Program-made: the position numbers and the translations under genes
NCBI GenBank assembly: GCA_964626935.1
Contig: CAZVIU010000003.1
Location: 1 to 36,290 of the forward strand
Length of the DNA: 36,290 bases
Direction: 5' to 3'
Origin: an uncultured Gammaproteobacteria bacterium
GTDB lineage: Bacteria > Patescibacteriota > Patescibacteriia > CAZVIU01
Notes under the pieces: model-generated
What the model was told of the DNA's origin: nothing
Database searches by the model: none
The model's input: the letters and a program-made list of their open reading frames with translations, nothing else
Shown: in pieces, positions 3,068-31,424 of the stretch
Numbering within the stretch: position 1 is the first letter of the stretch
How the letters are laid out: each line of letters begins with the position of its first letter

Positions 3068-3135
3068 CCAGTTAGTATGAGGTAGTCTAAAGCAGAGACC
3101 CCACTACTTGCGATAAAGGCAATAGTGCAGTCAAA

Positions 3136-3168
3136 CCCCCCCCGATGTACATCGGGGGGGTTGTTTTT
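3136..3168 (+). terminator. Rho-independent terminator after surface-protein gene
   Basis: CCCCCCCCGAT-GTAC-ATCGGGGGGG is a perfect GC-rich hairpin (3136-3160) followed by TTGTTTTT. Confidence 0.85.
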
Positions 3169-3180
3169 CAGCTGTTTTTA

Positions 3181-3386
3181 GAGCCCGAAGCACCTTGGGC
3201 GCTTCTGGTTTTATTCTTGGGCCCGAAGCACCTTGGGCGCTTCGGGCCCGGCTATAGGCTTATCTTGTTTTGATCAGTTTATCGTGTTAATATCTTTGAG
3301 TCGGTTTGGTTATGAGCCCGAAGCGTCTTGGGCGTTTCGGATTTGGTTATATTTTCGGCCCGAAGCGCCCAAGGCGCTTCGGGCCC
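3181..3386. repeat. Four copies of palindromic REP-like element GCCCGAAGCRC-N4-6-GCGCTTCGGGC
   Basis: Copies lie at 3181-3208, 3219-3249, 3314-3340 and 3357-3386. Full copies read GGGCCCGAAGCACCTTGGGCGCTTCGGGCCC and are followed by a conserved RGCTAYNNGCT tail. Confidence 0.9.
3265..3293 (+). promoter_or_regulatory. Putative sigma70-type promoter for the first Wzy_C-TPR gene
   Basis: TTGTTT (3265-3270), a 17-nt spacer ending in TGT (extended -10), then TAATAT (3288-3293). This is a pattern match only. It would place REP copies 3 and 4 in the 5' UTR. Confidence 0.25.
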
Positions 3387-3392
3387 AGCTAT

Positions 3393-5744: not shown

Positions 5745-5786
5745 AAATAAGCCATGGATTAATTGCGAATTGCAGTTTTCAGATTG

Positions 5787-5828
5787 CAAATTATAAATCT
5801 GAAATTTTAAATCATAAATTTGAAATTA
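5787..5828 (+). repeat. Heptamer array (NAAATYN)x6 abutting start codon of paralog 2
   Basis: CAAATTA TAAATCT GAAATTT TAAATCA TAAATTT GAAATTA ends 3 nt before ATG 5832. Confidence 0.8.
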
Positions 5829-5831
5829 TTT

Positions 5832-8054
5832 ATGTCTTTAGAAAAAGTGTGTTTTAAAATTTTGCGTCTTGGTGTTTATGCGAGCCTGGTCGCGCCTTTT
5901 TTTGTATTTCCGTGGACAATTTATCCGTATCTTTATGCCAAGGCATTATACATTAATATTATTGTAGCTGTAATGCTGCCATTTTACGTAGTTTTATTAA
6001 CCACAAATCCGGATTTTCGACCTAAAAAAAATCCCCCAACTATTGCCGTAATAGCATTTTTTCTTATCTTAATAGTTTCTAGTATTTTTAGTCCTGATCC
6101 GGGGCGGGCTTTTTGGGGAACACAAGAAAGATCAGCCGGACTATTTTTTCTGGCGCATTACTTCTTATTATTTTTAATCGCCAGCTCTATTTTTCGTAAC
6201 GAGGAGAGCTGGAAGAAACTTTTAATATTTTCTCTTTTTATAAGCATACTTGTCGCTGGCGGAACTTGGTGGGATATTGCCATGGAAAAAATCTGGAAGC
6301 CCGGAGCAGGGACAAGAACTGGCGGCACCTTGTCTAACCCTATTTTTTATGCCGCCTATCTCTTATTTCACATCCCCCCATCCCTTTGGTTAAGTTTCTC
6401 GGGTCGTAAAAAGGCGCATAAAATTGCTTGGCTGGCCGTTTTTATTTTTCTTAGTATTTCTTTGTTTTATACGCTTACTCGTGGCGCCCTACTTGGTTAC
6501 TTTGGTATGTTTTTCTTTGGTTTAATTTTAACTGGCTTATGTGTACAGAGATACCGAAAATGGATGTTTTTAGCTTCTAGTTTGATAGTAGTTTTTTTTG
6601 CCTTGATTTTTTTATTACGAACCAACCCGGTAATTTTAAAAAATCCGATATTAGGACGCCTCGCTTCGATTTCGCCCAAAGAAATAACCGCCCTAACCCG
6701 GCTAGAAGCTTGGCAAATTGCTTGGTATGGCTTTAAAGAAAAACCGATTTTAGGCTGGGGGCCGGAAAATTATTACGCTATTTTTAATAAATTTTATAAT
6801 CCAAAACTCTTGCGTTTTTCATATTATGAAACCTGGTCTGATAAACCGCACAGCATTGTTTTTGAAATTTTATCAACAACTGGTTTTTTGGGTCTAGCGG
6901 CTTATCTTGCGATCTATGGGTTGATCCTTGCTCATGGTTTTAAAAAATTGCGTAAAAAAACCATATCGGCAAAATTAACCATTCCGCTTTTAATGATTTT
7001 TGTCGGGTTTTTTATACAAAATCTTTTTGGTATTGATACAGTGAGTACCTACCTGATGTTTTATATCTTATTGGCTTTTGCCGGGTTTATTTTATATCCT
7101 ACAAATACTATAAGTCCCGTGAGTTTTGTAAGATCCGTAAACCCGATAGGAAATGTAAAACGTCCGGTAATTCTTGCCGGTATTGCAACAAGCATTCTTT
7201 CTCTTGTTTCAATCTGGCAATGGAACATCAAACCTGCTTACGCAGGCCATCTTACAGCCAAAGCAACAACCGTGGAGAATTTTGGTGCGGCTACGGATCT
7301 TTGGCAAAAAGCGTTAGATATTAAACATCCGTGGGCTTACGATGCCCAAGTTGAATACTTAAAAGGCATCACGAGAATAGTTCAGCGATCAGCAAATACG
7401 CAGTTTGAAGACTTAAAACCACTTCTCTTGCGCGGCGAGATGGCGGCAGAAGACCTAACAGCCAGTCACAAGCAAAATGCCTATTTTAATTATTTAGCCG
7501 GTAGATTTTATAGTGAATGGGGCAAGTTTGAATTTAAATATTTTGTTGAAGCAGAAAAATTATTTAAAAAATCTATTGAATTGAGCCCGCGTCGTCAGCA
7601 GCTTTTTTATGGTTTGGGTAGAATGTATTTGCTTTCCGGAAGAACTGACCAATCCTTAAAAGTATTTGAAGATTTAGTTAAGCTTGATCCCGGGGTTGAT
7701 GAATCTCACTGGTTTTATGGTTTGGCCCTGCGTCAAGCTGATCGCGGAGTCCAAGCCTACGAAGAGATAAAAGAGGCCATTCGTTTAGGATACAATGCGG
7801 TTGATTCAGGAGAGGTATTAGTTTTAGCCGAAGTAGCCACAAAAGAAAATGACCTCAAGGCGCTTCAAAAAATTTATGAAAACGCGATTGCCATTGATCC
7901 TAAGAATGGTGATTGGCACGCCCGGTTGGCGGCGTTGTATTTAGAATTGGGAAGAAAGGATGAGGCGCGCAAATTAGTTATCAGGGCAGTAGAGTTGGAC
8001 CCGACGCTTAAAGAAGAAGCAACCAAATTTTTGAAATTATTAGAAATTCAGTAG
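5832..8054 (+). CDS. Wzy_C (O-antigen-ligase family) membrane protein with C-terminal TPR domain, paralog 2
   Basis: Motifs are SPDPGRAFWGTQERSAG, TRGALLG and ILGWGPENYYAIFNKFYNPKLLRFSYYETWSDKPHSIVFEIL, with about 10-12 hydrophobic helices. TPR motifs are ELSPRRQQLFYGLGRMYLLSGR and DPKNGDWHARLAALYLELGRKDEARKLVIRAVELDP. ATG 5832 is preferred over the track's TTG 5820. Confidence 0.85.
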   Translation: MSLEKVCFKILRLGVYASLVAPFFVFPWTIYPYLYAKALYINIIVAVMLPFYVVLLTTNPDFRPKKNPPTIAVIAFFLILIVSSIFSPDPGRAFWGTQERSAGLFFLAHYFLLFLIASSIFRNEESWKKLLIFSLFISILVAGGTWWDIAMEKIWKPGAGTRTGGTLSNPIFYAAYLLFHIPPSLWLSFSGRKKAHKIAWLAVFIFLSISLFYTLTRGALLGYFGMFFFGLILTGLCVQRYRKWMFLASSLIVVFFALIFLLRTNPVILKNPILGRLASISPKEITALTRLEAWQIAWYGFKEKPILGWGPENYYAIFNKFYNPKLLRFSYYETWSDKPHSIVFEILSTTGFLGLAAYLAIYGLILAHGFKKLRKKTISAKLTIPLLMIFVGFFIQNLFGIDTVSTYLMFYILLAFAGFILYPTNTISPVSFVRSVNPIGNVKRPVILAGIATSILSLVSIWQWNIKPAYAGHLTAKATTVENFGAATDLWQKALDIKHPWAYDAQVEYLKGITRIVQRSANTQFEDLKPLLLRGEMAAEDLTASHKQNAYFNYLAGRFYSEWGKFEFKYFVEAEKLFKKSIELSPRRQQLFYGLGRMYLLSGRTDQSLKVFEDLVKLDPGVDESHWFYGLALRQADRGVQAYEEIKEAIRLGYNAVDSGEVLVLAEVATKENDLKALQKIYENAIAIDPKNGDWHARLAALYLELGRKDEARKLVIRAVELDPTLKEEATKFLKLLEIQ

Positions 8055-8160
8055 AAATTAGTTAGAAATTAAATAGAAATTAAGTATAAATAAATAGAAA
8101 TTAGCTCGCTCACGCTCGCGAAATTAGGTTACAACCTAATTTCTACTTAATTTCTACTTC
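8041..8160. repeat. Composite spacer element: phased TAGAAATT direct repeats, central hairpin, inverted AATTTCTA repeats
   Basis: TAGAAATT lies at 8041, 8052, 8063, 8074 and 8095 (11-nt phase, with degenerate TATAAATA at 8085). The hairpin AAATTAGGTT-AC-AACCTAATTT is at 8121-8142. AATTTCTA lies at 8138 and 8149. The array overlaps the paralog-2 stop codon TAG at 8052-8054. Confidence 0.85.
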
Positions 8161-8186
8161 GTTTCGTGAAGCTAATTTTTTTATTT

Positions 8187-10430
8187 ATGTTGGAAACCCG
8201 TCTCTTGCGATCAATTAAGATTTTATTGTACGCGGTACTTTTTGCTCCAGCCGTAGTAACTTACTCAACTGCTTATCCTTTTTTACATGGCAAGGTTTTC
8301 TGGATTGAGATATTCATAGAATTGCTGCTCGGTTTGTACTTAGTTTTAGTTTTAACCAGCAAAGATTATTGGCCAAAGAAAACGCCGCTTTTTTGGGCTA
8401 TGAGCGCGTTTATAGGCTCACTTGTTATTTCAACGATTTTTTCAGTTGATCGATCAATCAGTTTCTGGGGTGATTGGTCCCGTATGACCGGGCTTATTCT
8501 TTATCTACATCTTTTTGCATTTTTCATCATTTTTTCATCAGTTATAAAAAAAGATTATGAGCGACGCAACTATTTGATATTTTTTAGCTTACTCGGCACG
8601 GTTCTATCTATATTCGCCTGGATTCAAAGATACAATACAAAATTTTTAAAAGCAGTTTGGGTGGGTGGCCGTGTCGGTAGCACCATAGATAATCCGGCCT
8701 TTTTCGCGATTTTTTTAATATTCATAATTTTCATCAATCTCTGGTTAGCTTCTGTTGTTAGTAAAAAATACCGATTATTATTTTTTCTAAGCGCAATTTT
8801 TAATTTTCTAACCGTTTTTATTACCCAAACTAGAGGTGTTATTTTGGGTCTTTTTGCCGGAATGGCCATCTTTGCTTTTTTTAGAGTTATTAAGAGCACG
8901 CTTAAGTGGAAAATAGGCTTGGCAATATTTTTGGCATTGATCTTTGCCGCATTTATTTTTAAACCAACATATAATATTTTAACGCGCGCGCCTGGCCTTG
9001 GCAGAGTCTTAGAAAGTACCCTAATAGACTCCACCGCACAAACACGCCTCTTAACCTGGAAAATAGCAACGCGTGCCTGGCTCGCGCGACCAATTACTGG
9101 CTGGGGACACGAAGCCTTTTATGCGGCATTTAATAAATTCTATAAACCGGAATTTGTTCGTTTTTCTTTTTCTGAAACCTGGTTTGATAAAAGCCATAAT
9201 ATTTTTTTAGACCTTTTGTCAATGAACGGGCTCTTGGGTTTTTTTAGCTATATTTCTATTTTTATTTTTGGTTATATTGTAATAAGTCGAAGCAAAAAGT
9301 TGCCGATGGATTCGACGAGCTCGCCACAAGTGGTTACACAAAATAATGCATATATTAACAAATCACTAGTGCCACTTTATATCTCGCTAATTACGACCTA
9401 TTTCGTTGGAAATTTTTTTGAGTTTGATACGCCGGCCTCGCTTTTAGCCATATTTTTTATATTTGCCCTGATTTATTCATATAGCAACACAAATGATGCG
9501 AATGAGGCACGTTTGACGCCAGCGCAAATTGGGCGGCCAATACAGCCGTCAGTTGTCGCCCTCATCATTATAATTATCAGCATATTGTTATGGTTTGTGC
9601 CGATTAAAAGCGTTATTGCTTCCCGCGGTCTTGATCGCGCCAGTGACCTAATAAGAAATAATTTTGCCCAAGGCGCCAGCGCTTATCGCGAAATAATTGT
9701 AAAAAATAGGCGTTTTTCCGAGCCAGCAGCTCTGGAATACGCCATGCGCCTAAATCAGCTTTTATTAACTGATGACGAGGCCGTAATTAAATATAAAAAC
9801 GACTTTGATTTGACCATGAATAAACTTGAGGATAGCGCGAGGCGCCATAAATTTGATGTAAATTACGTTCTGGCCTATAGTCTTTTAGCCAATACCAGAG
9901 CCACAATGGAAACTGATTTTGCCAAAAAGGCTGAAAAATTATTAGAAGAAAATCGCTTGATGATTAATCCAGGTCGTCAGCAGGTTCTTCTCATGCTTGG
10001 AGAGACAAAACTATTATTAGACAAAAACGATGAAGCGATAAATATTTTAAAACAAGCGCAAGACTTGGCGCCAACTGCCCGTGAAATTAGTTATCGACTA
10101 GCCATTGTTTATTTTGCTAGTGGACTTGAAGAAGAAGGATTCGCGCAACTTAAGAAAGCCAAAATTTTAGGCATGGCTGATATCGGCGCGCAGCCGCTCT
10201 TAGTTTTAATAAGTGTAAACGCTTCCAGGGGTAATTGGGTAAAAGTCGCGGAACTTTACGAAAAATCTGTTAAGCTTGAGCCGAATAATGCCAAACTCTT
10301 TGCCCAAATGGCCACAGCTTATGCTACAATCGGGAATAAGAAACGAGCCCGAGAAGCTGTGGCGCGCGCTGTAGAACTTGACCCGAAATTGAAAGGAGAA
10401 GGAGAACAATTTTTAAGACAAGTTAAATAA
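8187..10430 (+). CDS. Wzy_C (O-antigen-ligase family) membrane protein with C-terminal TPR domain, paralog 3
   Basis: Motifs are SVDRSISFWGDWSRMTG, TRGVILG and ITGWGHEAFYAAFNKFYKPEFVRFSFSETWFDKSHNIFLDLL. The TPR motif is LEPNNAKLFAQMATAYATIGNKKRAREAVARAVELDP. ATG 8187 (MLETRLLRSIKILLYAV) aligns with the paralog N-termini. The track starts at GTG 8166. Confidence 0.85.
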   Translation: MLETRLLRSIKILLYAVLFAPAVVTYSTAYPFLHGKVFWIEIFIELLLGLYLVLVLTSKDYWPKKTPLFWAMSAFIGSLVISTIFSVDRSISFWGDWSRMTGLILYLHLFAFFIIFSSVIKKDYERRNYLIFFSLLGTVLSIFAWIQRYNTKFLKAVWVGGRVGSTIDNPAFFAIFLIFIIFINLWLASVVSKKYRLLFFLSAIFNFLTVFITQTRGVILGLFAGMAIFAFFRVIKSTLKWKIGLAIFLALIFAAFIFKPTYNILTRAPGLGRVLESTLIDSTAQTRLLTWKIATRAWLARPITGWGHEAFYAAFNKFYKPEFVRFSFSETWFDKSHNIFLDLLSMNGLLGFFSYISIFIFGYIVISRSKKLPMDSTSSPQVVTQNNAYINKSLVPLYISLITTYFVGNFFEFDTPASLLAIFFIFALIYSYSNTNDANEARLTPAQIGRPIQPSVVALIIIIISILLWFVPIKSVIASRGLDRASDLIRNNFAQGASAYREIIVKNRRFSEPAALEYAMRLNQLLLTDDEAVIKYKNDFDLTMNKLEDSARRHKFDVNYVLAYSLLANTRATMETDFAKKAEKLLEENRLMINPGRQQVLLMLGETKLLLDKNDEAINILKQAQDLAPTAREISYRLAIVYFASGLEEEGFAQLKKAKILGMADIGAQPLLVLISVNASRGNWVKVAELYEKSVKLEPNNAKLFAQMATAYATIGNKKRAREAVARAVELDPKLKGEGEQFLRQVK

Positions 10431-10440
10431 AAACTTAATT

Positions 10441-10553
10441 GAAATTCGGTGGAAATTTGATAGAAATTATCCCCATCTAAATCCTCCCCCTGCGATACAG
10501 GGGGAGGAAGTAGGAGAGGGTTAATTTCAACTGAATTTCGCGCAGTGAATTTC
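10441..10553. repeat. Composite spacer element: phased GAAATT repeats, GC hairpin, inverted AATTTC repeats
   Basis: GAAATT lies at 10441, 10452 and 10463 (11-nt phase). The hairpin CCTCCCCCTG-CGATA-CAGGGGGAGG is at 10483-10507. AATTTC lies at 10523, 10534 and 10548. The architecture matches 8041-8160. Confidence 0.85.
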
Positions 10554-10569
10554 TATTGAATCTCCGACA

Positions 10570-12786
10570 GTGAGTACCGAAAAACTATCAAAATATCTTT
10601 ACAGATTCATAGTTATTGGTCTGTATGCGGCATTACTCATGCCCTTTATTTATATTGATAATCTTATTTTTCCATTTATCACCGGAAAGGTTTTTATTTT
10701 TCAAATTTTGATTGAAGTCTTATTGGCAGCTTGTTTGCTCCTGATTTATTTAGACAGAAGTTTCCTGCCTAAACAGAGCCTTGTTCTCATCTCGGTTTTT
10801 TTATTTTTAATAAGCATAATTTTATCAACAATTTTTTCATATGACCCTGATCGCAGTTTCTGGGGTAATTATGAACGAATGAGCGGAACATTCACACTTC
10901 TGCATTTTGTCGCTTATTTTTTCATACTCGTTGGTATTTTACGCACGCCGCTTACCTGGAAACGGTATCTTACAGCCGCTGTAGCGCTCTCCGGAGTACA
11001 GGCGGTTATTGGTATAGCGCAATACTATTCTACGAATTTACTTTTAACAGCTGGTGGCGGAAGAATTTGGGGCACGCTGGGTAATTATATCTATTTAGCT
11101 ACTTATGCGATTTTTCACATTTTTATTGGCGCGATGCTTTTGGCGGAAGCAGGCAACAAATCGCCATCCAGTAAGAGCAAGTGGTCAAGGGTGGTTTTTG
11201 GCGGATTGATCTTCTTAAATGTGGTTGTGCTTTATCTCTCGGGCACGCGAGGCGGATATGTTGGTTTTTTATCAGGCTTGAGTTTGGTTGCTATTATTTC
11301 TGTTTTTGTAGCCAAAAATAAGAAAGTAAAATTAATTTTTATCAGCGCCCTCATTCTGGTAATTCTCTTCATGGTTATGGGGCGTGTTTATCGCAGCACT
11401 AAATTTGCGCGGAGCCTTCCCATTGTTGGGCCGCTTTTAAATTTAGACATTAAAGCCGATACTGGTTTTACTCGTTTGATCGGTTGGCAATTAGCCCTAA
11501 AGGGTTGGCAAGATAAACCAATTTTCGGTTGGGGACCAGAAAATTACTATTACGCCTTTAATAAGCATTTCGATCCTAGATCACTTGAAAGAGGGTATTA
11601 TGAAACTTGGTTTGATCGGCCGCACAATATAGTCTTTGATGTTTTATCTACCCAAGGGTTAGTCGGGCTCTTAACTTATCTAAGTATTTTTGTAAGTATT
11701 TTTATAGTTTCTTGGCGCGCTTGGCGACAAAAAATAATTTTAGGGTGGCAATTTGCCCTGTCCTTAGGGGGCGTGGGAGCATACTTTACACAAAATCTTT
11801 TCGTTTTTGATCAGCCAAGTTCTTTTCTTTTATTTTATTTGTTTATTGCTTATTTTCATTCATTGGCTGACGGAGAGCGTAAAAGTATTGAGATGGTTAA
11901 AAACGAGAATCAGAAACGTTCAAGCATTTATTTGGCGATTTTATTGGGGGTAGGGGTTTTGTGGCTGGGATATCAAAGCGTCCTAAAGCCATGGAAAGCC
12001 GGGGTTACCTCTATTGCGGCTGAAAGACTACTCACGACTGATTTTAATCAAGCTTTTGCTATATACCGGCGTGCCACCGAAATAGAAACACCATATAAAG
12101 ATGATATACAGGTTAGTTTAGCCAGAATCGTGCATGAGCGAGCCGGAACTGACGCGATCTTTATTCGCGATAATAAAGAAAAAATAGATTTTACCGTGAG
12201 CGAAGTTAAAAAATTCATTGAAATTCACCCTAACGATGTTTATCCATATATGGCCCTGGCGCAACTCTACGGACTTTTAGCCATTATTGATCCACAATAT
12301 TTTGCGCCGGCTGAAGAAGCCCTTGCCAGGGCCGCGCTTCTCTCGCCAAAACGGCAGCAGATCTATTTTGTCTGGGCCAGGTTTAAGGTCATGCAAAAAG
12401 ACTACACGCAAGCTCACGAGCTAATACAAAAAACCATAGATTTCGATCCTCAAGTTTCAGAAACTTATTGGTATCAAGCGTTAATTTATAATTCCGAAGC
12501 CAATGATGCTAAGGCCTTAGAATACATGAAAGAAGCAAGAAAAAGAGGTTATGGGTGGAAAAATACCACGGAAGCATTTTTATTCGGCAGATTGCTCGAG
12601 ATAAACAAAGATTATGATCAAATACCGCAAGTTTTAAAAGAGATCATTAGCTTAGATTCTAAGGCGGAAAACTATTATTATCTAGCCACTGCTTATCAGC
12701 GCTTGGGGAAAAACGAAGAAGCTCAAAGAGCGCTGGGAAAAGCAGTGGAGACGGACCCAAATATTTTACAAAAAATGCAAAAGTGA
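10570..12786 (+). CDS. Wzy_C (O-antigen-ligase family) membrane protein with C-terminal TPR domain, paralog 4
   Basis: Motifs are SYDPDRSFWGNYERMSG, TRGGYVG and IFGWGPENYYYAFNKHFDPRSLERGYYETWFDRPHNIVFDVL. TPR motifs are LLSPKRQQIYFVWARF, ETYWYQALIY and AENYYYLATAYQRLGKNEEAQRALGKAVETDP. The start is GTG. Confidence 0.85.
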   Translation: MSTEKLSKYLYRFIVIGLYAALLMPFIYIDNLIFPFITGKVFIFQILIEVLLAACLLLIYLDRSFLPKQSLVLISVFLFLISIILSTIFSYDPDRSFWGNYERMSGTFTLLHFVAYFFILVGILRTPLTWKRYLTAAVALSGVQAVIGIAQYYSTNLLLTAGGGRIWGTLGNYIYLATYAIFHIFIGAMLLAEAGNKSPSSKSKWSRVVFGGLIFLNVVVLYLSGTRGGYVGFLSGLSLVAIISVFVAKNKKVKLIFISALILVILFMVMGRVYRSTKFARSLPIVGPLLNLDIKADTGFTRLIGWQLALKGWQDKPIFGWGPENYYYAFNKHFDPRSLERGYYETWFDRPHNIVFDVLSTQGLVGLLTYLSIFVSIFIVSWRAWRQKIILGWQFALSLGGVGAYFTQNLFVFDQPSSFLLFYLFIAYFHSLADGERKSIEMVKNENQKRSSIYLAILLGVGVLWLGYQSVLKPWKAGVTSIAAERLLTTDFNQAFAIYRRATEIETPYKDDIQVSLARIVHERAGTDAIFIRDNKEKIDFTVSEVKKFIEIHPNDVYPYMALAQLYGLLAIIDPQYFAPAEEALARAALLSPKRQQIYFVWARFKVMQKDYTQAHELIQKTIDFDPQVSETYWYQALIYNSEANDAKALEYMKEARKRGYGWKNTTEAFLFGRLLEINKDYDQIPQVLKEIISLDSKAENYYYLATAYQRLGKNEEAQRALGKAVETDPNILQKMQK

Positions 12787-12856: not shown

Positions 12857-14014
12857 TTAATATTTGTATAGCTTAACCGTTTTTATAAGCATTTTGTCAA
12901 AGTTGAATTTTTCTTGGAATTGCCTCGCGGTAGCGTGGCTTAAATTGTTGCGTAACTCTTGATTATCAATAAATTTTTTAAGAGCATTTACAATTGCCCT
13001 TGAATCAGCTGGCGGCACTAAAAGGCCGCTTGTTTCATTTTCTAACATTTCTGGTATGGCGCCCACATTTGTCGCTATAATTGGCACACCGGCTTGTATA
13101 GCTTCAAGCAAGGCATAAGGCAGACCCTCTTTTACCGAAGGGAGCACAAAGAGGTCAAAGGCCTTTAGATAGCGAGCTGCATCAGGCAGGGAGCCGATAA
13201 GATAAAAATTTTGCAATCCATAATTCTTAATTCTTAATTCTAAATTCTCGCGTTCTGGGCCAGAACCGATAATGATGAAACTTGGTTCGACCCCTTCTTT
13301 CTTAAGTACGGCTGCTGCATCAATGAGATATTCAATACCCTTGGTTTTATAAAGATTGGCGATGGTGATAATCCACAGCGGGGAATTAAGAATTGAGAAT
13401 TTAGAATTAAGCTTTGCACGCGCCTCATCGCGTGAAAGAAAACTAATTGGATTGATGCCGTGGGGGATTATGGCAAGTTTTTCCTGATCGCAGATTTTAT
13501 TTTTTAGCGCGGCGGCATAATCATATTGAGAGAGCGTAATTATTCTATCGTGAATTTTGCCAGCAACGCGCTCCATAAATACATATAGTTTTTTGCGCCA
13601 CCAAGGCAGAGGTTCGTTAAAAACCCAGCCGTGGGCAGTGTAAATTAATTTAGGTTTTAGGTTGTAGGTTGTAGGTTGTAGGAATTTTTTAGCCACTGTG
13701 CTGATGAGGCTGGCTTTGGAGCTATTTAGATGGACGATGCTGGGCTGCTCCTTTTTAAAAAATTGTGCTAGCTCAAAAATTGCCGCGATATCTTTAAGCG
13801 GATTAATTTCACGGACGAGATTTTTAAAAGTATGCGTATTAATATCCGCTTCTTTGCATTTTTGTATCAATTCCTGACTACCCTCCGCGCCAGATGCAAC
13901 AGTAATATCAAACTCATCTTTTAAGGCAGTTGCCAAATCAAAAACATAGGCTTGCGCGCCACCCCATTCGCCTTGAGTTACCACATAAATTAGCTTTAAT
14001 TTTGCTGGTTGCAT
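12857..14014 (-). CDS. GT4-family (GT-B) glycosyltransferase
   Basis: The N-terminus is KLIYVVTQGEWGGAQAYVFDLA. The C-terminal donor-binding motif is FVLPSVKEGLPYALLEAIQAGVPIIATNVGAIPEMLENETSGLLVPP (EX7E). Confidence 0.9.
   Translation of the reverse strand: MQPAKLKLIYVVTQGEWGGAQAYVFDLATALKDEFDITVASGAEGSQELIQKCKEADINTHTFKNLVREINPLKDIAAIFELAQFFKKEQPSIVHLNSSKASLISTVAKKFLQPTTYNLKPKLIYTAHGWVFNEPLPWWRKKLYVFMERVAGKIHDRIITLSQYDYAAALKNKICDQEKLAIIPHGINPISFLSRDEARAKLNSKFSILNSPLWIITIANLYKTKGIEYLIDAAAVLKKEGVEPSFIIIGSGPERENLELRIKNYGLQNFYLIGSLPDAARYLKAFDLFVLPSVKEGLPYALLEAIQAGVPIIATNVGAIPEMLENETSGLLVPPADSRAIVNALKKFIDNQELRNNLSHATARQFQEKFNFDKMLIKTVKLYKY
13221..13248. repeat. Heptamer array TAATTCT x4 inside GT4 CDS
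   Basis: TAATTCT TAATTCT TAATTCT AAATTCT is read on the minus strand as ENLELRIKNY. Confidence 0.9.
13383..13411. repeat. Heptamer array GAATTAA x4, inverted partner of 13221-13248, inside the same CDS
   Basis: GAATTAA GAATTGA GAATTTA GAATTAA G is read on the minus strand as KLNSKFSILNS. It lies 134 nt from the inverted array. Confidence 0.9.
13651..13682. repeat. Heptamer array TAGGTTK x4.6 inside GT4 CDS
   Basis: TAGGTTT TAGGTTG TAGGTTG TAGGTTG TAGG is read on the minus strand as QPTTYNLKPK. Confidence 0.9.
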
Positions 14015-14076
14015 ATAAGCATTGATCTTGATATTATAGTGTGATATAGTGGTTTATTCAAGTATCTGATTATTGA

Positions 14077-14140
14077 GCGTTTAGCGCATAGCGGTTAGCG
14101 TTTAGTTAATTGTTCTAAACCCTAAACCCTAAACCCTAGG
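14077..14140. repeat. Two heptamer arrays in divergent intergenic region
   Basis: GCGTTTA GCGCATA GCGGTTA GCGTTTA lies at 14077-14104. CTAAACC CTAAACC CTAAACC CTAGG lies at 14115-14140 and ends at the TTG start at 14141. Confidence 0.85.
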
Positions 14141-15139
14141 TTGGTGTACGAGAAACTAAAAAATGCAAAAGTATTGGTTACCGGTGGGGCCGGCTTTATT
14201 GGCTCGCATCTTTCGCGCCGGCTTTTGGATTTGGGCGCGTATGTCGTGGTTTTAGATAATTTAAGTACTGGCGACAAAAATAATTTGAAATCATGCTTAG
14301 ATTTTCCAAATTTTGATTTTTTTCAAGGTGATGTAAATATTAGAGAGCAGGTCGCCCATGTTTTTAATCATGAAAAAATTGATTATGTTTTTCACGGCGC
14401 TGCTGTTGTCGGAGTAAAAAGAGTTGAGGAGGATCCGCTTTTAGTCCTGCGAGATATTGACGGGATAAGAAATATTTTAGAACTGGCACGCGTTCATGGC
14501 GTAAAAAAAGTAGTTTTTTGTTCTTCGTCAGAAGCTTATGGCGAACCGCAAACCTTACCAGAGCGTGAGGATGGGCCGATAAATCCAAATCCGCGCGATC
14601 CTTACGCGCTTGTTAAGCTCCAGGGTGAGAATTTGATTAGAATTTATGCCGAAAAAATGGGACTTCCTGGCTGTTCTCTGCGTTATTTTAATGTTTACGG
14701 TCCCAATCAAATTGCTTCCGCCTATGGTTTTGTGGTAGGAATTTTTATAAATCAAGTTTTGCAGGGGATAAATCCAACCGTTTTTGGCGATGGCACTCAA
14801 ACACGAGATTTTGTTTATATTGATGATAATATTGAAGCCAATGTGAGAGCGTTAATTTTAGACACGGCTAATAATGGCGAAGTTATCAATGTGGGCAGCG
14901 GCAGACAAACAACCATTTTAGATTTAGCGGAAAGGATTGCTCGGTTGTCAGGAAAAGATCTGCCCTCATTGCGTTTGCCAGAAAGAAAGATTGAGATCCG
15001 TTATCGTGCCCCAGACATAACAAAAATGAAAGAATTACTTGGATTCACGCCGCAGGTTTCGTTGGATGATGGTGTGCGGAAAACAATTGAGTGGTACAAG
15101 AATTTCATTGAGCACCCATCGCCGAACGATTATATTTAG
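14141..15139 (+). CDS. NAD-dependent epimerase/dehydratase (extended SDR; UDP-sugar 4-epimerase-like)
   Basis: VLVTGGAGFIGSHL is a Rossmann motif. The SSSEAYG and YALVK (YxxxK) catalytic motifs are present, as is the FNVYGP motif. The start is TTG 14141 or GTG 14144. Confidence 0.85.
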   Translation: MVYEKLKNAKVLVTGGAGFIGSHLSRRLLDLGAYVVVLDNLSTGDKNNLKSCLDFPNFDFFQGDVNIREQVAHVFNHEKIDYVFHGAAVVGVKRVEEDPLLVLRDIDGIRNILELARVHGVKKVVFCSSSEAYGEPQTLPEREDGPINPNPRDPYALVKLQGENLIRIYAEKMGLPGCSLRYFNVYGPNQIASAYGFVVGIFINQVLQGINPTVFGDGTQTRDFVYIDDNIEANVRALILDTANNGEVINVGSGRQTTILDLAERIARLSGKDLPSLRLPERKIEIRYRAPDITKMKELLGFTPQVSLDDGVRKTIEWYKNFIEHPSPNDYI

Positions 15140-15220
15140 TAATTAAGTCATTGGTCACTAAGTCATTGAGACAATTTTAAATGACTGTTAATTACTTAAT
15201 TACTTAATTACTTAATGACT
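15140..15220. repeat. Inverted octamer arrays spanning the spacer between SDR and GT4 genes
   Basis: The left arm is TAATTAAGTCATT..CTAAGTCATT. The right arm is AAATGACT GTTAATTA CTTAATTA CTTAATTA CTTAATGA. CTTAATTA is the reverse complement of TAATTAAG. The element begins right after the stop codon at 15137-15139, and ATG 15215 lies in its last unit. Confidence 0.85.
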
Positions 15221-16495
15221 CGAGTTGTAATCTTCAGCACCTTCTACGAGCCCTTTATGTCTGGGGCCGAACGAATGGTTAAAGAAGTAGTAGAGCGGTT
15301 GCAAGAGCGCTATTCGTTTATAATTGTTACTTCTCGTTTAAGACGCAATTTGCCCCAGTTTGTTGAGGTCGAACATCGACGCACTTTGCAGCGAGCAGGA
15401 GCGAGCGAAAGAAGGAGGTTCGACCTCGATGACAGTCGAATTAAAATTGTGCGGATCGGTTTTGGTTGGAAATTTGATAAATTTTTGTATCCAATTCTCG
15501 CGCCGTTTTACGCATTAAGATATAGGCCGAAGATTGTTCACGCGATAATGGAGAGCTACGCGGGAATCGCGCTTTTAGTTTATTCGTATCTCGCCAAACT
15601 TTCAAAACCCTTAATTCTTAATTCTCAATTCTTAATTCTAACCTTACGGCGGAGATCGAATCTCGACGCACTCTGCAGCGAGCAGGAGCGAGCGAAAGAA
15701 GGAGATTCGATCTCGCATAAAAATGTATTCACCATTCTAACACTCCAGAGCGGTGACCTTGACCTACCAGAAAAACAGGCGCGGATTCCTAGGTGGCTTT
15801 GGAAGCGAATACATTGTGCGCCCAATCTCATAGTTTCTATTGGAAATTCAATGGCCGAGCGTGCAAGAAAGTTGGGAGCAAAGAGTGTTCGAGTTATTCC
15901 CAACGGTGTTAATCTTACGGAGGTCCGACCTCCAAATATACGGAGGTCGGACCTCCGTCAACATCATATTGTATGTGTTGCCCGTCTTTCTCCTGAAAAG
16001 GGAATTGAATATCTAATCGAAGCAATGCCCTTCGTAATAGCGCAATACCCTGATGCCGAGCTGGTTTTGGTGGGAAATGGCGCATTGAGAGAAAAGCTAC
16101 AAGCTACAAGCTACAAGCTACAAGCTCATGTTGAGTTTAGAGGCACGTTATCTCATGAGAAAACTCTTGAAGAAATGGCCACCTCTGATATTCTCGTTTT
16201 GCCATCTTTAGCCGAGGGCATGGGCATTGTGTTAGTCGAAGCTCAAGCGCTCGGCGTTCCAGTAATCGGTACTAATGTTGGCGGTATTCCAGATGTTATT
16301 GAGCACGAAAGAACAGGCCTGCTCGTGCCGCCACATGACCCGCGCGCAATCGCGCAAGCAGTCATTCGCTTATTTCATGATCACGAACTAAGAGAACGCA
16401 TGGTTGTTGAAGCGGAAACGCGTCTTCTTAAATTTGATTGGCAGAAGATCGCGGAAGAATATAGGAACATTTATGATCAGGTATCAAGCGTATAA
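15215..16495 (+). CDS. GT4-family glycosyltransferase carrying five in-frame repeat insertions
   Basis: The C-terminal motif is ILVLPSLAEGMGIVLVEAQALGVPVIGTNVGGIPDVIEHERTGLLVPP, and ARLSPEKGIEYLIEA is present. The N-domain is interrupted by repeat-encoded segments (see repeats at 15365, 15611, 15652, 15917 and 16094). Confidence 0.85.
   Translation: MTRVVIFSTFYEPFMSGAERMVKEVVERLQERYSFIIVTSRLRRNLPQFVEVEHRRTLQRAGASERRRFDLDDSRIKIVRIGFGWKFDKFLYPILAPFYALRYRPKIVHAIMESYAGIALLVYSYLAKLSKPLILNSQFLILTLRRRSNLDALCSEQERAKEGDSISHKNVFTILTLQSGDLDLPEKQARIPRWLWKRIHCAPNLIVSIGNSMAERARKLGAKSVRVIPNGVNLTEVRPPNIRRSDLRQHHIVCVARLSPEKGIEYLIEAMPFVIAQYPDAELVLVGNGALREKLQATSYKLQAHVEFRGTLSHEKTLEEMATSDILVLPSLAEGMGIVLVEAQALGVPVIGTNVGGIPDVIEHERTGLLVPPHDPRAIAQAVIRLFHDHELRERMVVEAETRLLKFDWQKIAEEYRNIYDQVSSV
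15365..15427 (+). repeat. 63-nt hairpin element, copy 1 (GAGGTCGAAC-N43-GTTCGACCTC)
   Basis: It has a 10-bp perfect stem and is translated EVEHRRTLQRAGASERRRFDL, with element position 1 at codon position 1. Confidence 0.9.
15611..15640 (+). repeat. Heptamer array TTAATTC x4.3 inside CDS
   Basis: TTAATTC TTAATTC TCAATTC TTAATTC TA is translated LILNSQFLIL. Confidence 0.9.
15652..15714 (+). repeat. 63-nt hairpin element, copy 2 (GAGATCGAAT-N43-ATTCGATCTC)
   Basis: The core CGACGCACTYTGCAGCGAGCAGGAGCGAGCGAAAGAAGGAG matches copy 1, which differs at one position within it (the Y). It is read in a different frame, as RRSNLDALCSEQERAKEGDSIS. Confidence 0.9.
15917..15957 (+). repeat. Two adjacent copies of palindrome ACGGAGGTCSGACCTCC inside CDS
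   Basis: Copies lie at 15917-15933 and 15940-15957 and are translated TEVRPPNIRRSDLR. The arms resemble the stem of the 63-nt element. Confidence 0.9.
16094..16127 (+). repeat. Heptamer array (AAGCTAC)x4 perfect plus a partial unit, inside CDS
   Basis: This is a direct read, translated KLQATSYKLQA. Confidence 0.95.
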
Positions 16496-16572: not shown

Positions 16573-17880
16573 ATGAAGATTTTAATAGCAACAGGAATTT
16601 ATGGAGGTTTGGGAGATATAGGTGGCCCGGCAATATATTCAGAGTCTCTTGCGCGAGAGTTGATTAAGCGCGGGCACAAAGTGACCGTTGTTACTTATTC
16701 TAGTTCATATAAATCCGAAATCCGAAATCCTCCGCCAAAGGCGGATCAGTCTCTGACTGAGAAATCCGAAACAAATCCGAAATCAGAAATTCAAAACTCT
16801 AATTTTTTATTAGTACGAGTTCAACGCGAATTACCACTGCTATTGCGGTATAGTTTTTATAAATTGACAGCACTCTGGCACGGATGGCACGCAGATATCA
16901 TATACGCTCAAGATTCAGTTTCTGCAGGATTTCCTACAATGTTGGCTAATCTAATTTTGCGAAAACCATTTATTTTGAAAGTTATTGGCGATTATGCGTG
17001 GGAGCAGTATCAAAATCAAAAATCAAAAATCAAAAATCAAAAATTAGGTATGTTGCCAAGCAGTATTGATCATAATGGTTTGTCGCTAGACGATTTTTTA
17101 AATGAAAAACCCAGTGGCAAGATTAAGGCTTTTTGGAATATTGAAAGATGGGTGGCAAGACGCGCCAACAAGATTATTGTGCCGAGCAATTATCTAAGAG
17201 GCGTGGTGCAGAAGTGGGGGATTCAATCAGCCAAGATTGAGGTGATTTATAATTCTTTTGACTGGAGCTCATTACAAAACTCGATCTCTAAAGTTCCGGT
17301 CGAGACCCCAGAGGCCACACCGCATGATACTATCTATTCAGTCGGTCGTCTTGTTCCGTGGAAAGGATTTGATACGTTGATTGAAATAATGCCCGAGGCA
17401 TTGAAAGAAAAACCAAATACAGAGCTCGTGATCTACGGCGATGGACCGATGCGTGAAGGTTTAAGATTTAAGATTAAAGATTTAGGATTAGAGACTCATG
17501 TGAAACTTTTGGGAAGAATAGATCACGCGAAGCTCTTGGAAGCCTTGCAGGGTGAGCGCAAGTTTTTTGTGCTTAACAGTTCGTACGAAGGTATGTCTCA
17601 TCAAATTTTAGAGTGTCAGGCTTTGAAAATTCCTTGCGCGGTTAGCCGCGTCGGCGGAAATCCGGAAATTGTGGAGAACGAAAAAACTGGTTTGCTTTTT
17701 GAATATAATAATAAAGAACAGATCAAAAACGCAATCATACGACTGCTTGACGAGCAAGCACTCGTCGAACATATAAGAGAAAAAGCCTATGCACAGATTA
17801 AAGATCGGCACGATTTTAATCAAATGATTGAAAAAACGATAACCGTACTCCAATCCACACTATCATACTATATAGTATGA
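16573..17880 (+). CDS. GT4-family glycosyltransferase carrying in-frame repeat insertions
   Basis: The N-terminus is KILIATGIYGGLGDIGGPAIYSESLARELIKRGHKVTVVT. GRLVPWKGFDTLIE is present. The C-terminal motif is FVLNSSYEGMSHQILECQALKIPCAVSRVGGNPEIVENEKTGLLFE. Confidence 0.88.
   Translation: MKILIATGIYGGLGDIGGPAIYSESLARELIKRGHKVTVVTYSSSYKSEIRNPPPKADQSLTEKSETNPKSEIQNSNFLLVRVQRELPLLLRYSFYKLTALWHGWHADIIYAQDSVSAGFPTMLANLILRKPFILKVIGDYAWEQYQNQKSKIKNQKLGMLPSSIDHNGLSLDDFLNEKPSGKIKAFWNIERWVARRANKIIVPSNYLRGVVQKWGIQSAKIEVIYNSFDWSSLQNSISKVPVETPEATPHDTIYSVGRLVPWKGFDTLIEIMPEALKEKPNTELVIYGDGPMREGLRFKIKDLGLETHVKLLGRIDHAKLLEALQGERKFFVLNSSYEGMSHQILECQALKIPCAVSRVGGNPEIVENEKTGLLFEYNNKEQIKNAIIRLLDEQALVEHIREKAYAQIKDRHDFNQMIEKTITVLQSTLSYYIV
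16711..16800 (+). repeat. 90-nt composite module: AAATCCG array, two hairpins, AAATCNG array; exactly 30 codons
   Basis: AAATCCG AAATCCG AAATCCT is followed by TCCGCC-AAA-GGCGGA, then TCAGTC-TCT-GACTGA, then AAATCCG..AAATCCG AAATCAG AAATTCA AAACTCT. It is translated KSEIRNPPPKADQSLTEKSETNPKSEIQNS. Confidence 0.9.
17011..17044 (+). repeat. Heptamer array (CAAAAAT)x4 perfect, preceded by CAAAAT, inside CDS
   Basis: This is a direct read, translated QNQKSKIKNQK. Confidence 0.95.
17460..17494 (+). repeat. Degenerate heptamer array TTTAAGA x5 inside CDS
   Basis: TTTAAGA TTTAAGA TTAAAGA TTTAGGA TTAGAGA is translated LRFKIKDLGLE. Confidence 0.8.
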
Positions 17881-17887: not shown

Positions 17888-17926
17888 AGGTTCAGTTAGA
17901 TTGTCGCTGTTTCTACGGTGATAACT

Positions 17927-19153
17927 ATGCGGGTTTTAATAATAAGTCTTGATCAATCAATCCTAGATCCGGCGTCAGAAGCGCGAAGCAGGATGTTGGA
18001 ATATGCGGCGCTCGCAGATGGTTTATATGTTTTTGTATTTGCGAAACGCGGATCTACACGCGGATCTTCTCGCGCGGATCTACACGCGGATCAGAATTTA
18101 TTTATATATAGATTCAGTGCAAGCACTGTCGGTTGGATTAAGGCGTTATTTTTCGGTAGACGACTCGTGCGCGAAAAACAAATTGATGTAGTAAGTTCGC
18201 AGGATCCCTTTGAAACCGGCCTACTCGGATATCTAATTGTTAAATTGATGCACTTTCATACTATAAAGTATGAAAGTGCCAGTACAGTAGGTTTGAATGT
18301 GCAGTTGCACGGGGACTTTTATGGAAATCCATATTGGCGAATTGAACAATTATTGAATCGGTTGCGGTGGCATCTTGGATTATTTGTTATGCGTCGCGCT
18401 GGCAGCATTCGTGTTGTTAGCGAAAGAATAAAACAAAGCTTAGAAGCAAGAATTAAGAATCAAGAATTAAGGATTATCAAGGCTCCTATTTATACGGACA
18501 TAGAATTTTTTCGTACTGCCAAACCGATTTTCAACTTGAAAGAAAAGTATCCACAATTCAATTTTATAATTATCACCGTTGCTAATCTTGTGCCTGTTAA
18601 AAACTTAGAATTTCTTATTAACGCGATGAAAAAGCTGCATGAAATTTTAACCAATGCCGGATTGGTGATCGTCGGTGATGGTCCACTCCACAAAAAGCTA
18701 AAAGCTAAAAGCTACAAGCTACAAGCTAACAATTACATTATTTTTGAGGGTACGCAAAAAGGTTTAGTTTCATATTATAAAGGTGCTGATTGCTTGGCGC
18801 TTGTTTCCAAGTACGAGGGTTGGGGCAGGGTAGTGGTGGAGGCCGTCGCTAGCGGTTTGCCCATTGTGATGAGTGATGTTGGGTTAGCGGGAGAATTGAT
18901 TAGGGACGAAGAGAGCGGTCTTGTTGTGCTGAAGCGAAACTTCGACCAATGGAAGTTTCGCTTCGATCAGAACGCCGAAGATGACCTAGTTCGCGCGCTT
19001 TCACAAGTCTATTTTAACGAAAATTTAAGAAAAAAATTGATTGCTGGCGCGACAAATGCCTTGCAGCAGTTACCCTTAAAACAAGAAACACTAGAGTTGA
19101 TTAAAAAGTCGTGGGAGCTTGCAACGCGTAAAAGCAACGGTATTCACGATTAA
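17927..19153 (+). CDS. GT4-family glycosyltransferase carrying five in-frame repeat insertions
   Basis: MRVLIISLDQSILDPASEARSRMLEYA is the N-terminus. The C-terminal motif is LALVSKYEGWGRVVVEAVASGLPIVMSDVGLAGELIRDEESGLVV. ATG 17927 is preferred over GTG 17918. Confidence 0.85.
   Translation: MRVLIISLDQSILDPASEARSRMLEYAALADGLYVFVFAKRGSTRGSSRADLHADQNLFIYRFSASTVGWIKALFFGRRLVREKQIDVVSSQDPFETGLLGYLIVKLMHFHTIKYESASTVGLNVQLHGDFYGNPYWRIEQLLNRLRWHLGLFVMRRAGSIRVVSERIKQSLEARIKNQELRIIKAPIYTDIEFFRTAKPIFNLKEKYPQFNFIIITVANLVPVKNLEFLINAMKKLHEILTNAGLVIVGDGPLHKKLKAKSYKLQANNYIIFEGTQKGLVSYYKGADCLALVSKYEGWGRVVVEAVASGLPIVMSDVGLAGELIRDEESGLVVLKRNFDQWKFRFDQNAEDDLVRALSQVYFNENLRKKLIAGATNALQQLPLKQETLELIKKSWELATRKSNGIHD
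18047..18092 (+). repeat. Four copies of CGCGGATCT spaced 12/14/12 nt inside CDS
   Basis: CGCGGATCTACA CGCGGATCTTCTCG CGCGGATCTACA CGCGGATC is translated RGSTRGSSRADLHAD. The first two copies are read as R-G-S and the last two as A-D-L. Confidence 0.9.
18250..18279 (+). repeat. Hairpin GCACTTTCATACT-ATAA-AGTATGAAAGTGC inside CDS
   Basis: It has a perfect 13-bp stem and is translated MHFHTIKYESA. It shares the TCATACTAT..AGTATGA core with the palindrome at 17856-17887. Confidence 0.9.
18448..18475 (+). repeat. Heptamer array AAGAATT x4 inside CDS (same family as 13383 and 15611)
   Basis: AAGAATT AAGAATC AAGAATT AAGGATT is translated RIKNQELRI. Confidence 0.9.
18695..18729 (+). repeat. Heptamer array AAGCTAM x5 inside CDS
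   Basis: AAGCTAA AAGCTAA AAGCTAC AAGCTAC AAGCTAA is translated KLKAKSYKLQAN. The family and protein position match 16094-16127. Confidence 0.95.
18931..18964 (+). repeat. Hairpin GAAGCGAAACTTC-N8-GAAGTTTCGCTTC inside CDS
   Basis: It has a perfect 13-bp stem and is translated KRNFDQWKFRF. It shares the GAAGCG/CGCTTC core with the REP-like family at 3181-4211. Confidence 0.9.
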
Positions 19154-31379: not shown

Positions 31380-31424
31380 AAACAATTTTTTGTTTTAATG
31401 TTTTCATGTTTTAATGTTTTAATG
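31355..31424 (+). repeat. Composite element: AGAACANA octamers, 13-nt spacer, GTTTTMAT octamers, spanning a stop-intergenic-start junction
   Basis: AGAACACA AGAACAAA AGAGCATA contains the TAA stop at 31377-31379. AAAACAATTTTTT follows, then GTTTTAAT GTTTTCAT GTTTTAAT GTTTTAAT G, which contains ATG 31422. It is homologous to 4901-5042. Confidence 0.9.

Follow-up and report, generated by a model that had tools for sequence, protein, structure and literature searches.

Two short tandem arrays of a seven-nucleotide unit, AAGAATT and its complement, lie in inverted orientation within an intact, functional GT4 glycosyltransferase gene on a 36,290-nt stretch of patescibacterial DNA (assembly GCA_964626935.1, contig CAZVIU010000003.1, positions 1 to 36,290; hereafter the window), and in both arrays the unit that would have placed a stop codon in frame carries a substitution that removes it. 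Micro-arrays of this kind, about 25–35 nt long and with a period of 7 or, less often, 8 nt, are widespread in the Patescibacteria loci examined, and those in coding DNA pass a selection filter that retains stop-free versions at permissive positions. The original prediction, which had drawn attention to the stop-removing substitutions, described this filter as seen within one gene. Our favoured explanation, held with modest confidence, is that the arrays are heptanucleotide simple sequence repeats (SSRs) that probably arose by slippage or template switching in an intact GT4 gene and were then filtered by selection. An incomplete literature search returned no description of heptamer arrays in Patescibacteria or the candidate phyla radiation (CPR), of coding hot spots in GT4 genes or of the 35-nt length limit described below.

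Stop-free heptamer arrays in an intact GT4 gene

The host gene contains the following features, with units and codons given on the coding strand; repeats were detected with Tandem Repeats Finder (TRF) and open reading frames (ORFs) were assigned with Pfam.

12857–14014, minus strand: host gene, GT4 (GT-B fold) glycosyltransferase of 385 amino acids with three heptamer arrays (ORF and Pfam)
13220–13222, minus strand: codon TAT at the 3′ edge of the first array; one more repeat base (A) would give an in-frame TAA
13221–13248, minus strand: (AGAATTA)x4 (TRF, 4 copies; codon trace)
13242, minus strand: stop-removing substitution, T, in unit AGAATTT; codon 13243–13241 is TTA, not TAA (codon trace)
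13249–13382, minus strand: 134-nt spacer encoding PLWIITIANLYKTKGIEYLIDAAAVLKKEGVEPSFIIIGSGPER (translation and alignment)
13383–13411, minus strand: (TTAATTC)x4, the reverse complement of the 13221 array (TRF and codon trace)
13395, minus strand: extra variant, C, in unit TCAATTC; TCA replaces TTA, which is unneeded for stop avoidance
13402, minus strand: stop-removing substitution, A, in unit TAAATTC; codon 13402–13400 is AAA, not TAA (codon trace)
13651–13682, minus strand: (CCTACAA)x4.6, a stop-free unit and the third array of the gene (TRF)

The product of the host gene matches Glyco_transf_4 in its N-terminal part (5e-21) and Glycos_transf_1 in its C-terminal part (9e-38), as well as Glyco_trans_1_4, and so has the domain pair and the GT-B fold of two Rossmann domains that define a GT4 enzyme; its sequence relatives in the PDB are GT4 enzymes, for example BshA and WbnH. 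The AlphaFold model, with a mean predicted local distance difference test (pLDDT) score of 95.4 and a predicted template modelling (pTM) score of 0.91, consists of alternating β and α elements. The protein has 3402 homologues at E ≤ 1e-30, those bearing names being Patescibacteria/CPR, and it aligns with its homologues end to end with no insertion at the arrays; its cluster at 90% identity has one member. The gene is an intact, functional GT4 glycosyltransferase gene, and its full length, the homologue alignment and the confidence of the model bear out the original prediction that the arrays are translated parts of functional proteins and not pseudogene debris.

On the minus strand, the first array reads AGAATTT AGAATTA AGAATTA AGAATTA, with the codons GAG AAT TTA GAA TTA AGA ATT AAG AAT TAT, and encodes E-N-L-E-L-R-I-K-N-Y (residues 256–265) in the modelled helix H255–264, which we denote site 261. 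The second reads C TTAATTC TAAATTC TCAATTC TTAATTC, with the codons CTT AAT TCT AAA TTC TCA ATT CTT AAT TCC, and encodes L-N-S-K-F-S-I-L-N-S (residues 202–211) at the end of helix H195–206 and in a loop; this site 207 lies near the junction of the Glyco_transf_4 and Glycos_transf_1 domains as delimited by Pfam. Both arrays consist of at least three short head-to-tail units, the hallmark of an SSR (4.0 and 4.1 copies with 95% and 86% matches in TRF). The third array encodes residues ~111–121, the lowest-confidence loop of the model (loop 113–121; site 116). Because 7 divided by 3 leaves a remainder of 1, a perfect heptamer array visits every frame once per three units, and the AAGAATT/TTAATTC unit holds a TAA on both strands.

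Further arrays lie in other coding sequences of the window.

4900–4941, plus strand: perfect octamer array (CAAGAGAA)x5.2, stop-free unit, in Wzy_C/TPR gene 3306–5744, between two domains
15610–15639, plus strand: (TTAATTC)x4 in GT4 gene 15215–16495; C at 15626 gives CAA, not TAA
16094–16126, plus strand: perfect (AAGCTAC)x4.7, stop-free unit, in GT4 gene 15215–16495, encoding KLQATSYKLQA in the site 261 helix
17012–17044, plus strand: perfect (AAAATCA)x4.7, stop-free unit, in GT4 gene 16573–17880
17456–17489, plus strand: (AAGATTT)x4.9 in GT4 gene 16573–17880; A at 17476 gives AAA, not TAA
18448–18476, plus strand: (AAGAATT)x4 in GT4 gene 17918–19153; C at 18461 gives CAA, not TAA
18693–18729, plus strand: (AAAAGCT)x3 followed by (ACAAGCT)x2, in the site 261 helix of GT4 gene 17918–19153
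23006–23036, plus strand: perfect octamer array (AAGAACAC)x3.9, stop-free unit, in GT4 gene 22539–23567
32122–32150, plus strand: octamer array (AAATATTT)x3.6 in RmlD-like gene 31398–32294; G at 32145 gives GAA, not TAA

Codon tracing reproduced the central observation of the original prediction: in all four arrays that it named, the unit that would hold an in-frame TAA carries a substitution (TTA at 13242, AAA at 13402, CAA at 15626 and CAA at 18461). The arrays at 17456–17489 and 32122–32150, absent from that prediction, follow the same rule, with frames derived from the ORF starts. Only four of the six off-consensus bases in the four named arrays remove a stop, the others being the variant at 13395 and a synonymous G at 18472 (AGG replacing AGA), and the 17456–17489 array has two more variants unrelated to stops. 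The further statement that every array stops immediately short of the next TAA phase held exactly for two arrays, one ending in TAT (13222–13220) and the other in TCC, with CCG where the next TAA would fall, whereas the other two end 7–9 nt earlier; arrays of every sort, among them the stop-free and the intergenic, usually run to about four to five units. Likewise, the four stop-free families that had been said to occur as perfect arrays are perfect, but other stop-free coding arrays are imperfect (13651–13682, 96%; 22738–22767, 91%; and 5012–5041, 95% in TRF).

The 16094 and 18693 arrays have 22 nt in common, 19 of them in the same reading frame. This in-frame identity (16108–16126 and 18709–18727) encodes SYKLQA in the same helix of two GT4 paralogues ~2.6 kb apart, and the direct repeats could yield an in-frame chimeric deletion. 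Immediately upstream of GT4 gene 15215–16495 is an octamer array, (TTAATTAC)x4, at 15188–15220, and the presumed start ATG (15215) falls in its last, variant unit, TTAATGAC, so that the start codon comes from a repeat variant. Near the 5′ end of GT4 gene 17918–19153 lies a GC-rich repeat (18046–18092; period 12/14, ACGCGGATCTAC, 3.8 copies with indels) that is unlike the AT-rich heptamer arrays.

The arrays are far more numerous than expected by chance: at a TRF score of at least 40, the window holds 29 arrays, whereas 30 dinucleotide-preserving shuffles average 0.93, and in 1.19 Mb of related loci there are 99 arrays of period 7 against 0 in shuffles, together with 38 and 22 arrays of periods 14 and 21, respectively. 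To the window and 83 related loci, amounting to 1.23 Mb of Patescibacteria DNA with 130 arrays inside ORFs, we applied the comparison of used and unused frames that the original prediction had proposed. All in-frame would-be stops had been removed (65/65), whereas off-frame would-be stops on the sense strand were mostly still stops (147/166, with 19/166 gone), as were those on the antisense strand (382/445). The bias towards stop removal in the used frame is real and extreme. An array in an intact ORF, however, cannot hold an in-frame stop; the pattern is therefore statistically forced and has no independent weight, and the comparison could not fail for intact genes, because the bias follows logically from looking inside intact ORFs. 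The stop-avoidance observation is accordingly real but statistically forced. The choice of unit is a less circular sign that points the same way: a unit without a stop in any sense frame is used by 58% of coding arrays, whereas the figure falls to 21% when the same arrays are read on the antisense strand and is 28% among intergenic arrays.

Position, length and turnover of the arrays

A search of genome contigs with the host GT4 yielded no contig of the window's species, its top match being 47% identical. Besides close relatives, we surveyed 80 loci that surround more distant homologues in the genomes of species representatives; 45 of these loci (45/80) contain at least one period-7 array. Overall, 130 of 171 arrays (76%) lie wholly inside ORFs and 20 more at ORF edges. 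GT4-like ORFs hold 106 of the 130 coding arrays (82%), at 3.5 per 10 kb and in 72 of 257 ORFs, whereas the other 643 ORFs hold 24 arrays, at 0.31 per 10 kb (odds ratio for GT4 12, p=1e-25); non-ORF DNA has 2.9 arrays per 10 kb. Each GT4 gene that carries arrays has one to three. Among the 29 array-host ORFs outside the window that lack a tblastn match to the host GT4, 11 are GT4 by Pfam, 6 are Wzy_C/TPR genes and 3 are sugar epimerases.

Array length peaks at 31–35 nt, corresponding to ~4.4–5 units, with an abrupt fall at 36 nt whether the DNA is coding or intergenic; the limit of ~35 nt is independent of location and period. The units are diverse, with 77 different ones among 118 coding arrays, and AAGAATT is the commonest in coding DNA (10 arrays in 7 loci) although it needs stop repair. 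Adenine is enriched on the sense strands of the arrays (43.5%, compared with 30.5% in host ORFs), and lysine and leucine are the residues most often encoded.

We mapped the arrays of periods 7, 8, 14 and 21 within GT4 homologues (27–67% identity) onto the residues of the query. They fall only at residues 46–57, 112–120, 196–210, 239–246 and 259–264, with unrelated units. Four of these five sites are among the five 10-residue windows of highest entropy in a 106-sequence alignment, and the fifth (256–265) ranks eleventh. In the AlphaFold model, all five comprise the C-terminal end of a surface helix and the α-to-β loop leading into the next strand. In Rossmann-type folds, this helix-end, α-to-β side lies opposite the ligand-binding β-to-α loops.

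The three closest orthologues of the host gene (L004, L005 and L006, with 67, 63 and 61% identity) have heptamer arrays at the same three sites, with differing units or orientation. L004 has AAGAATT arrays at both site 207 and site 261 in direct orientation, and the other two have different units at the paired sites. Against a background of 68.6% DNA identity between the window and L004 genes, the site 261 arrays are identical at 26 of 28 nt, whereas the site 207 arrays are in opposite orientation and match at 12 of 29. L004 shares the edge codon TAT at 13220–13222 and removes the would-be stop equivalent to that at 13242 differently, with TAT. At site 116, the units are CCTACAA in the window and GCTAAAA in L004, differing by the same two changes in every unit, and L005 alternates both; the repetition of the same two changes throughout the array bears the mark of concerted evolution. 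The four near-identical contigs, a very small sample, show no length variants, and the concerted evolution among orthologues implies long-term turnover.

The arrays mostly overwrite existing sequence rather than insert into it, as judged from small length differences: the site 261 segment between invariant anchors has 22–23 residues with or without an array, and the presence of an array at one of the four loop sites goes with only 2–7 extra residues, though an array encodes ~10 residues. We accordingly rejected insertion as their origin. Target-site duplication footprints of transposons (7–8 bp) and telomerase-like addition were also set aside, in view of the absence of net insertion at site 261 and the great diversity of units. 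Arrays in the same locus share an identical unit, in either orientation, in 18 of 333 pairs against 5.3 expected from pairs in different loci (p=9e-6), and, where the two arrays are no more than 200 nt apart, in 4 of 25 pairs (0.4 expected); 8 of the shared pairs are direct and 10 inverted.

Intergenic arrays occur beside the host gene as well. In the divergent region upstream of it are (AGCGTTT)x4 at 14076–14105 and (CTAAACC)x3.4 at 14115–14138; the latter resembles the plant telomere repeat CCCTAAA and is complementary to the former at 6/7 positions. The same two unit families are found in the same arrangement upstream of the 61%-identical orthologue L006 (220–253 and 260–289), so these intergenic arrays are conserved between the window and L006 while the coding arrays changed. 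An RNA hairpin formed by the 14076–14105 and 14115–14138 arrays was considered and rejected, the fold being no better than shuffles (z=−0.58). In L004, (ATGAATT)x3.4 at 1384–1407 and (AATTCTT)x4.9 at 1427–1460 lie 20 nt apart near the 3′ ends of convergent genes, the first overlapping a gene end and the second within an epimerase ORF; they are complementary at 6/7 positions and may form a bidirectional terminator built from heptamer arrays.

The inverted pair and competing explanations

The 13221 and 13383 arrays are, as originally described, inverted copies bracketing 134 nt of coding sequence. Their arms of 23–26 nt are 85–91% complementary and 134–142 nt apart. In one register, 17 nt are 100% complementary (13233–13249 and 13395–13411), and this stretch takes in both stop-removing substitutions and the 13395 variant: the substitution at 13402 is the exact complement of that at 13242, and the 13395 variant is complementary to a G flanking the other array. 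These shared variants make the two arrays look like copies of each other, not independently repaired. A second inverted pair, in a GT4 gene of locus L071, has arms of 44 nt at 84% with a spacing of ~150 nt and also shares variant units and flanks.

The suggestion that the pair might extrude a cruciform or mediate inversion did not find support. Three metagenome contigs (L001–L003) are 99.97–99.99% identical to the window and gap-free over every array, and the four independent contigs, the window included, have identical arrays in one orientation, so that the proposed check of assemblies for inversion of 13249–13382 returned the native orientation only. In the contigs of the metagenome collection, an inverted-junction pattern had no match, and a flank-anchored, variable-gap pattern over both arrays matched one contig only, at native length. 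The 27 large ORFs of the window gave only glycan-biosynthesis families, an AAA_28 ATPase, an FAD oxidoreductase and cupins in Pfam, and no recombinase, ORF 128–3067 being without a match. Of the features of an invertible switch, the flanking inverted repeats are thus present, but the contigs show neither both orientations nor, in the window, a nearby recombinase. Cruciform extrusion needs near-perfect arms and a short central spacer; the spacer of 134–142 nt is far longer and the arms are imperfect and AT-rich.

In the comparison of L003 (1–1440) with the window, the 99.97% match extends only to 14697, inside the epimerase gene 14141–15139, beyond which the sequences are unrelated. This breakpoint, at which there is no array, reflects either strain-level recombination or chimeric assembly.

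A function of the pair itself, as an mRNA hairpin, a DNA cruciform or the arms of an invertible switch, is very unlikely. The complementarity of the arms, the perfect 17-nt register with both stop-removing substitutions and the similarly spaced pair in L071 would suit such a function, and the predicted mRNA fold does pair the two arrays (−52.8 kcal/mol), but with a weak z-score (−2.2) that 4 of 200 shuffles equal. An inverted allele would also remain open: in silico inversion of 13249–13382 leaves a 385-codon ORF without a stop. This openness is probably due to chance, for which our own estimate is ~10–30% for 44 antisense codons, and inversion would destroy conserved motifs, as the spacer holds the nearly invariant N220, Y222, T224, K225, G226, G250 and G252 and its inversion replaces the nearly invariant ANLYKTKG and GxG motifs. 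Moreover, the L004 arrays are direct, the other two orthologues have different units, and unit sharing is about equally direct and inverted. We conclude that no conserved function resides in the inverted arrangement, which is best read as a by-product of local copying, not a switch.

Such copying is part of the explanation that we favour, slippage or template switching followed by selection. A length-neutral process of this type would nucleate on chance quasi-repeats and would make neighbouring units alike, and it could place copies of an array, in one orientation or the other, at sites close by. The generating process is inferred; the variants that inverted pairs share, the concerted evolution and the overwriting without insertion all fit it. 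The filtering by selection, by contrast, is shown by the data: coding arrays survive almost only where surface-glycan enzymes have poorly conserved helix-end and α-to-β-loop segments, and only if they lack an in-frame stop, while off-frame TAAs stay. Several points weigh against this explanation. The density of arrays in GT4-like ORFs is 11 times that in other ORFs and above that in non-ORF DNA, much more so in the five hot-spot segments; a neutral process followed by a filter accounts for the hot spots but should not load coding loops above intergenic DNA, unless intergenic DNA in these compact genomes is itself tightly constrained. Array length drops sharply at 36 nt instead of showing geometric decay, which implies that some length limit is acting. 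Slippage by one unit frameshifts the gene, so concerted evolution needs length-neutral templating or transient OFF alleles, and neither has been directly observed; the generating mechanism is wholly inferred. The GT4 enrichment, the length limit and the local sharing of units are three properties that the current model leaves unexplained and that merit follow-up.

Alternatively, the arrays may be contingency loci, tracts that selection maintains because adding or losing a single unit (7 or 8 nt) turns individual surface-glycan glycosyltransferases off and on and would diversify the cell surface against phages or hosts, as in neuO or lipooligosaccharide (LOS) tracts. Units of 7 and 8 nt are not multiples of three and shift the frame, 82% of coding arrays are in GT4 genes and most of the others in Wzy-like or sugar-nucleotide surface-glycan genes, the concerted evolution implies repeated slippage-like events, and neuO provides a precedent in its translated AAGACTC tract in a capsule-modifying gene (PMC13001214). 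A search of the 1.23 Mb, however, found no GT4 homologue broken into two frames at an array or close to one, and all 72 array-bearing GT4 ORFs are intact, whereas 66% of neuO genes are phase-OFF in complete genomes (PMC13001214). The tracts are limited to ~5 units, in place of the long tracts of neuO (3–53), and no copy-number difference occurs among the contigs of four assemblies that are 99.97–99.99% identical. The arrays are also internal, not at the 5′ end, with two or three in a gene, and the same arrays with the same length limit occur in intergenic DNA. Phase variation is therefore unlikely; we retain it because the consensus sequences of metagenome-assembled genomes could hide minority alleles.

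A different possibility is a targeted or positively selected GT4 device, with arrays written or retained at helix-end and loop sites as short homology patches through which paralogues or alleles exchange modules in frame, or as the ~33-nt footprint of a dedicated diversification or repair enzyme. The GT4 odds ratio and the density above non-ORF DNA, the sharp ~35-nt limit regardless of location and period, the sharing of units within genomes in both orientations, the 19-nt in-frame identity of two window paralogues at the same helix and the hot spot near the junction of the N-terminal and C-terminal domains all argue for it. Yet no candidate enzyme appears among the Pfam-matched ORFs of the window (all but 128–3067), 77 units among 118 arrays leave no common recognition sequence or template, and the shared 19–22 nt are below the length usual for efficient RecA recombination, as generally known from E. 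coli. We saw no alleles of chimeric or recombinant make-up, and the hot spots are the least conserved segments, as a passive filter predicts; we consider such a device improbable. A related proposal is quite unlikely, namely that a lineage-specific process of Patescibacteria writes or maintains heptamer tracts of ~31–35 nt preferentially at helix-end and loop positions of GT4 enzymes and copies them in either orientation, through a dedicated enzyme or a property of replication or repair that selection exploits, and so constitutes a new system of localized diversification or recombination patches for enzymes of the cell surface. Chance low-complexity sequence or assembly artefact, to which the shortness and AT-richness of the arrays might point, has a negligible likelihood: it is ruled out by the shuffles, by identical arrays in NCBI, JGI and ENA assemblies and by arrays at the same sites in orthologues from Logan assemblies.

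Locus context and comparison with known systems

According to the ORF list and Pfam, the content of the window is nearly all surface-polysaccharide genes.

Window: six GT4 glycosyltransferases (Pfam)
Window: GT2 enzymes, sugar-nucleotide epimerases/dehydratases, RmlD, asparagine synthase and methyltransferases (Pfam)
Window, 128–12786 region: tandem Wzy_C (O-antigen-ligase-like) and TPR paralogues in one orientation, four confirmed (Pfam)

The Wzy_C/TPR tandem is preceded by the large ORF 128–3067, which has no match in Pfam, and Wzy_C/TPR relatives in other loci also host arrays. No known RNA family was found within the window in Rfam. The spacers between the tandem paralogues contain arrays of GAAATT-N5 with an 11-nt period (5788–5827, 8033–8104, 8137–8159 and 10441–10468), that is, AAATT tracts phased at about one helical turn; the unit at 8137–8159, TAATTTCTACT, is the reverse complement of that at 8033–8104. 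These arrays could be curved-DNA promoter elements or a terminator hairpin.

Stop avoidance is the expected signature of any repeat in a working gene and carries little weight alone. What is notable is the context: ultra-small, host-dependent bacteria with arrays in a quarter of their GT4 genes, at five fixed positions of the enzymes, a limit of ~35 nt and turnover of units between species. If only mutation and a filter are at work, the arrays give a clean natural map of the residues that the GT-B fold can do without and would signal that replication or repair in Patescibacteria is unusual. Selection or targeting behind the enrichment would mean that bacteria have a new means of varying surface-glycan enzymes, with a bearing on the phage and host interactions of a phylum that accounts for a large share of bacterial diversity. 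For annotation, arrays that are translated should not be masked or treated as frameshift-prone errors.

Among known processes, quasi-palindrome or quasi-repeat correction (the model of Ripley, on which Lovett and colleagues have worked in E. coli) perfects imperfect repeats without change of length and copies variants between arms, which matches the shared variants in inverted pairs and the length-neutral homogenization seen here. Its known effect is to create point-mutation hot spots, not genome-wide 7-nt arrays, and we know of no link to a 7-nt period or a 35-nt limit. Contingency loci of LOS and lipopolysaccharide synthesis (tetranucleotide and homopolymer tracts) have units of 1–5 nt, long tracts and documented ON/OFF switching, none of which is found here. 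They are alike in that SSRs of Haemophilus, Neisseria and Campylobacter lie inside glycosyltransferase genes for surface polysaccharides (PMC2651432). The neuO gene of E. coli K1 has, like the arrays in the window, a 7-nt unit (AAGACTC) translated in three phases in a gene that modifies a surface glycan (PMC13001214), and in both cases the unit has to be stop-free in every phase, or repaired, for read-through. The neuO tract is hypervariable, with 3–53 copies at the 5′ end, and out of frame in 66% of genomes (PMC13001214); the arrays of the window type have at most ~5 copies, are internal, leave 0 of 72 genes out of frame and do not vary in length among near-identical contigs.

The repeats in Borg ORFs are also recent, fast-evolving, in-ORF tandem repeats that leave frames undisturbed and produce variable peptide segments, but their units are divisible by three, hold no stop codons and form disordered insertions (PMC9879509). 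The arrays described here have 7- or 8-nt units read in three phases and mostly overwrite existing helix or loop sequence with little or no change in length. Nor do they form an amino-acid repeat of the Borg type, as the peptide period would be 7 residues and only ~1.4 periods are present.

The closest likeness is to the heptameric SSRs that are over-represented in many bacteria and for which an explanation by slippage, tied to the footprint of the polymerase, has been put forward (Mrazek 2007, cited in PMC4692102), examples being the cyanobacterial short tandemly repeated repetitive (STRR) sequences of Calothrix and Nostoc, GGGAATC in Xanthomonas and GGGGA(T/C)T in Nostoc (Mrazek et al. 2007, cited in PMC4692102). 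As described there, these too are short head-to-tail tracts of 7-nt units beyond chance, also in inverted pairs, which differ in length and sequence between related genomes at conserved positions and for which an origin by slippage is proposed. In the same account, the STRR and Xanthomonas repeats are mainly intergenic with one or a few units per genome, whereas here 130 of 171 arrays are in ORFs and 118 coding arrays have 77 units. The arrays reported here differ further in their host, Patescibacteria, and in the concentration of 82% of coding arrays in one enzyme family, at five structural sites.

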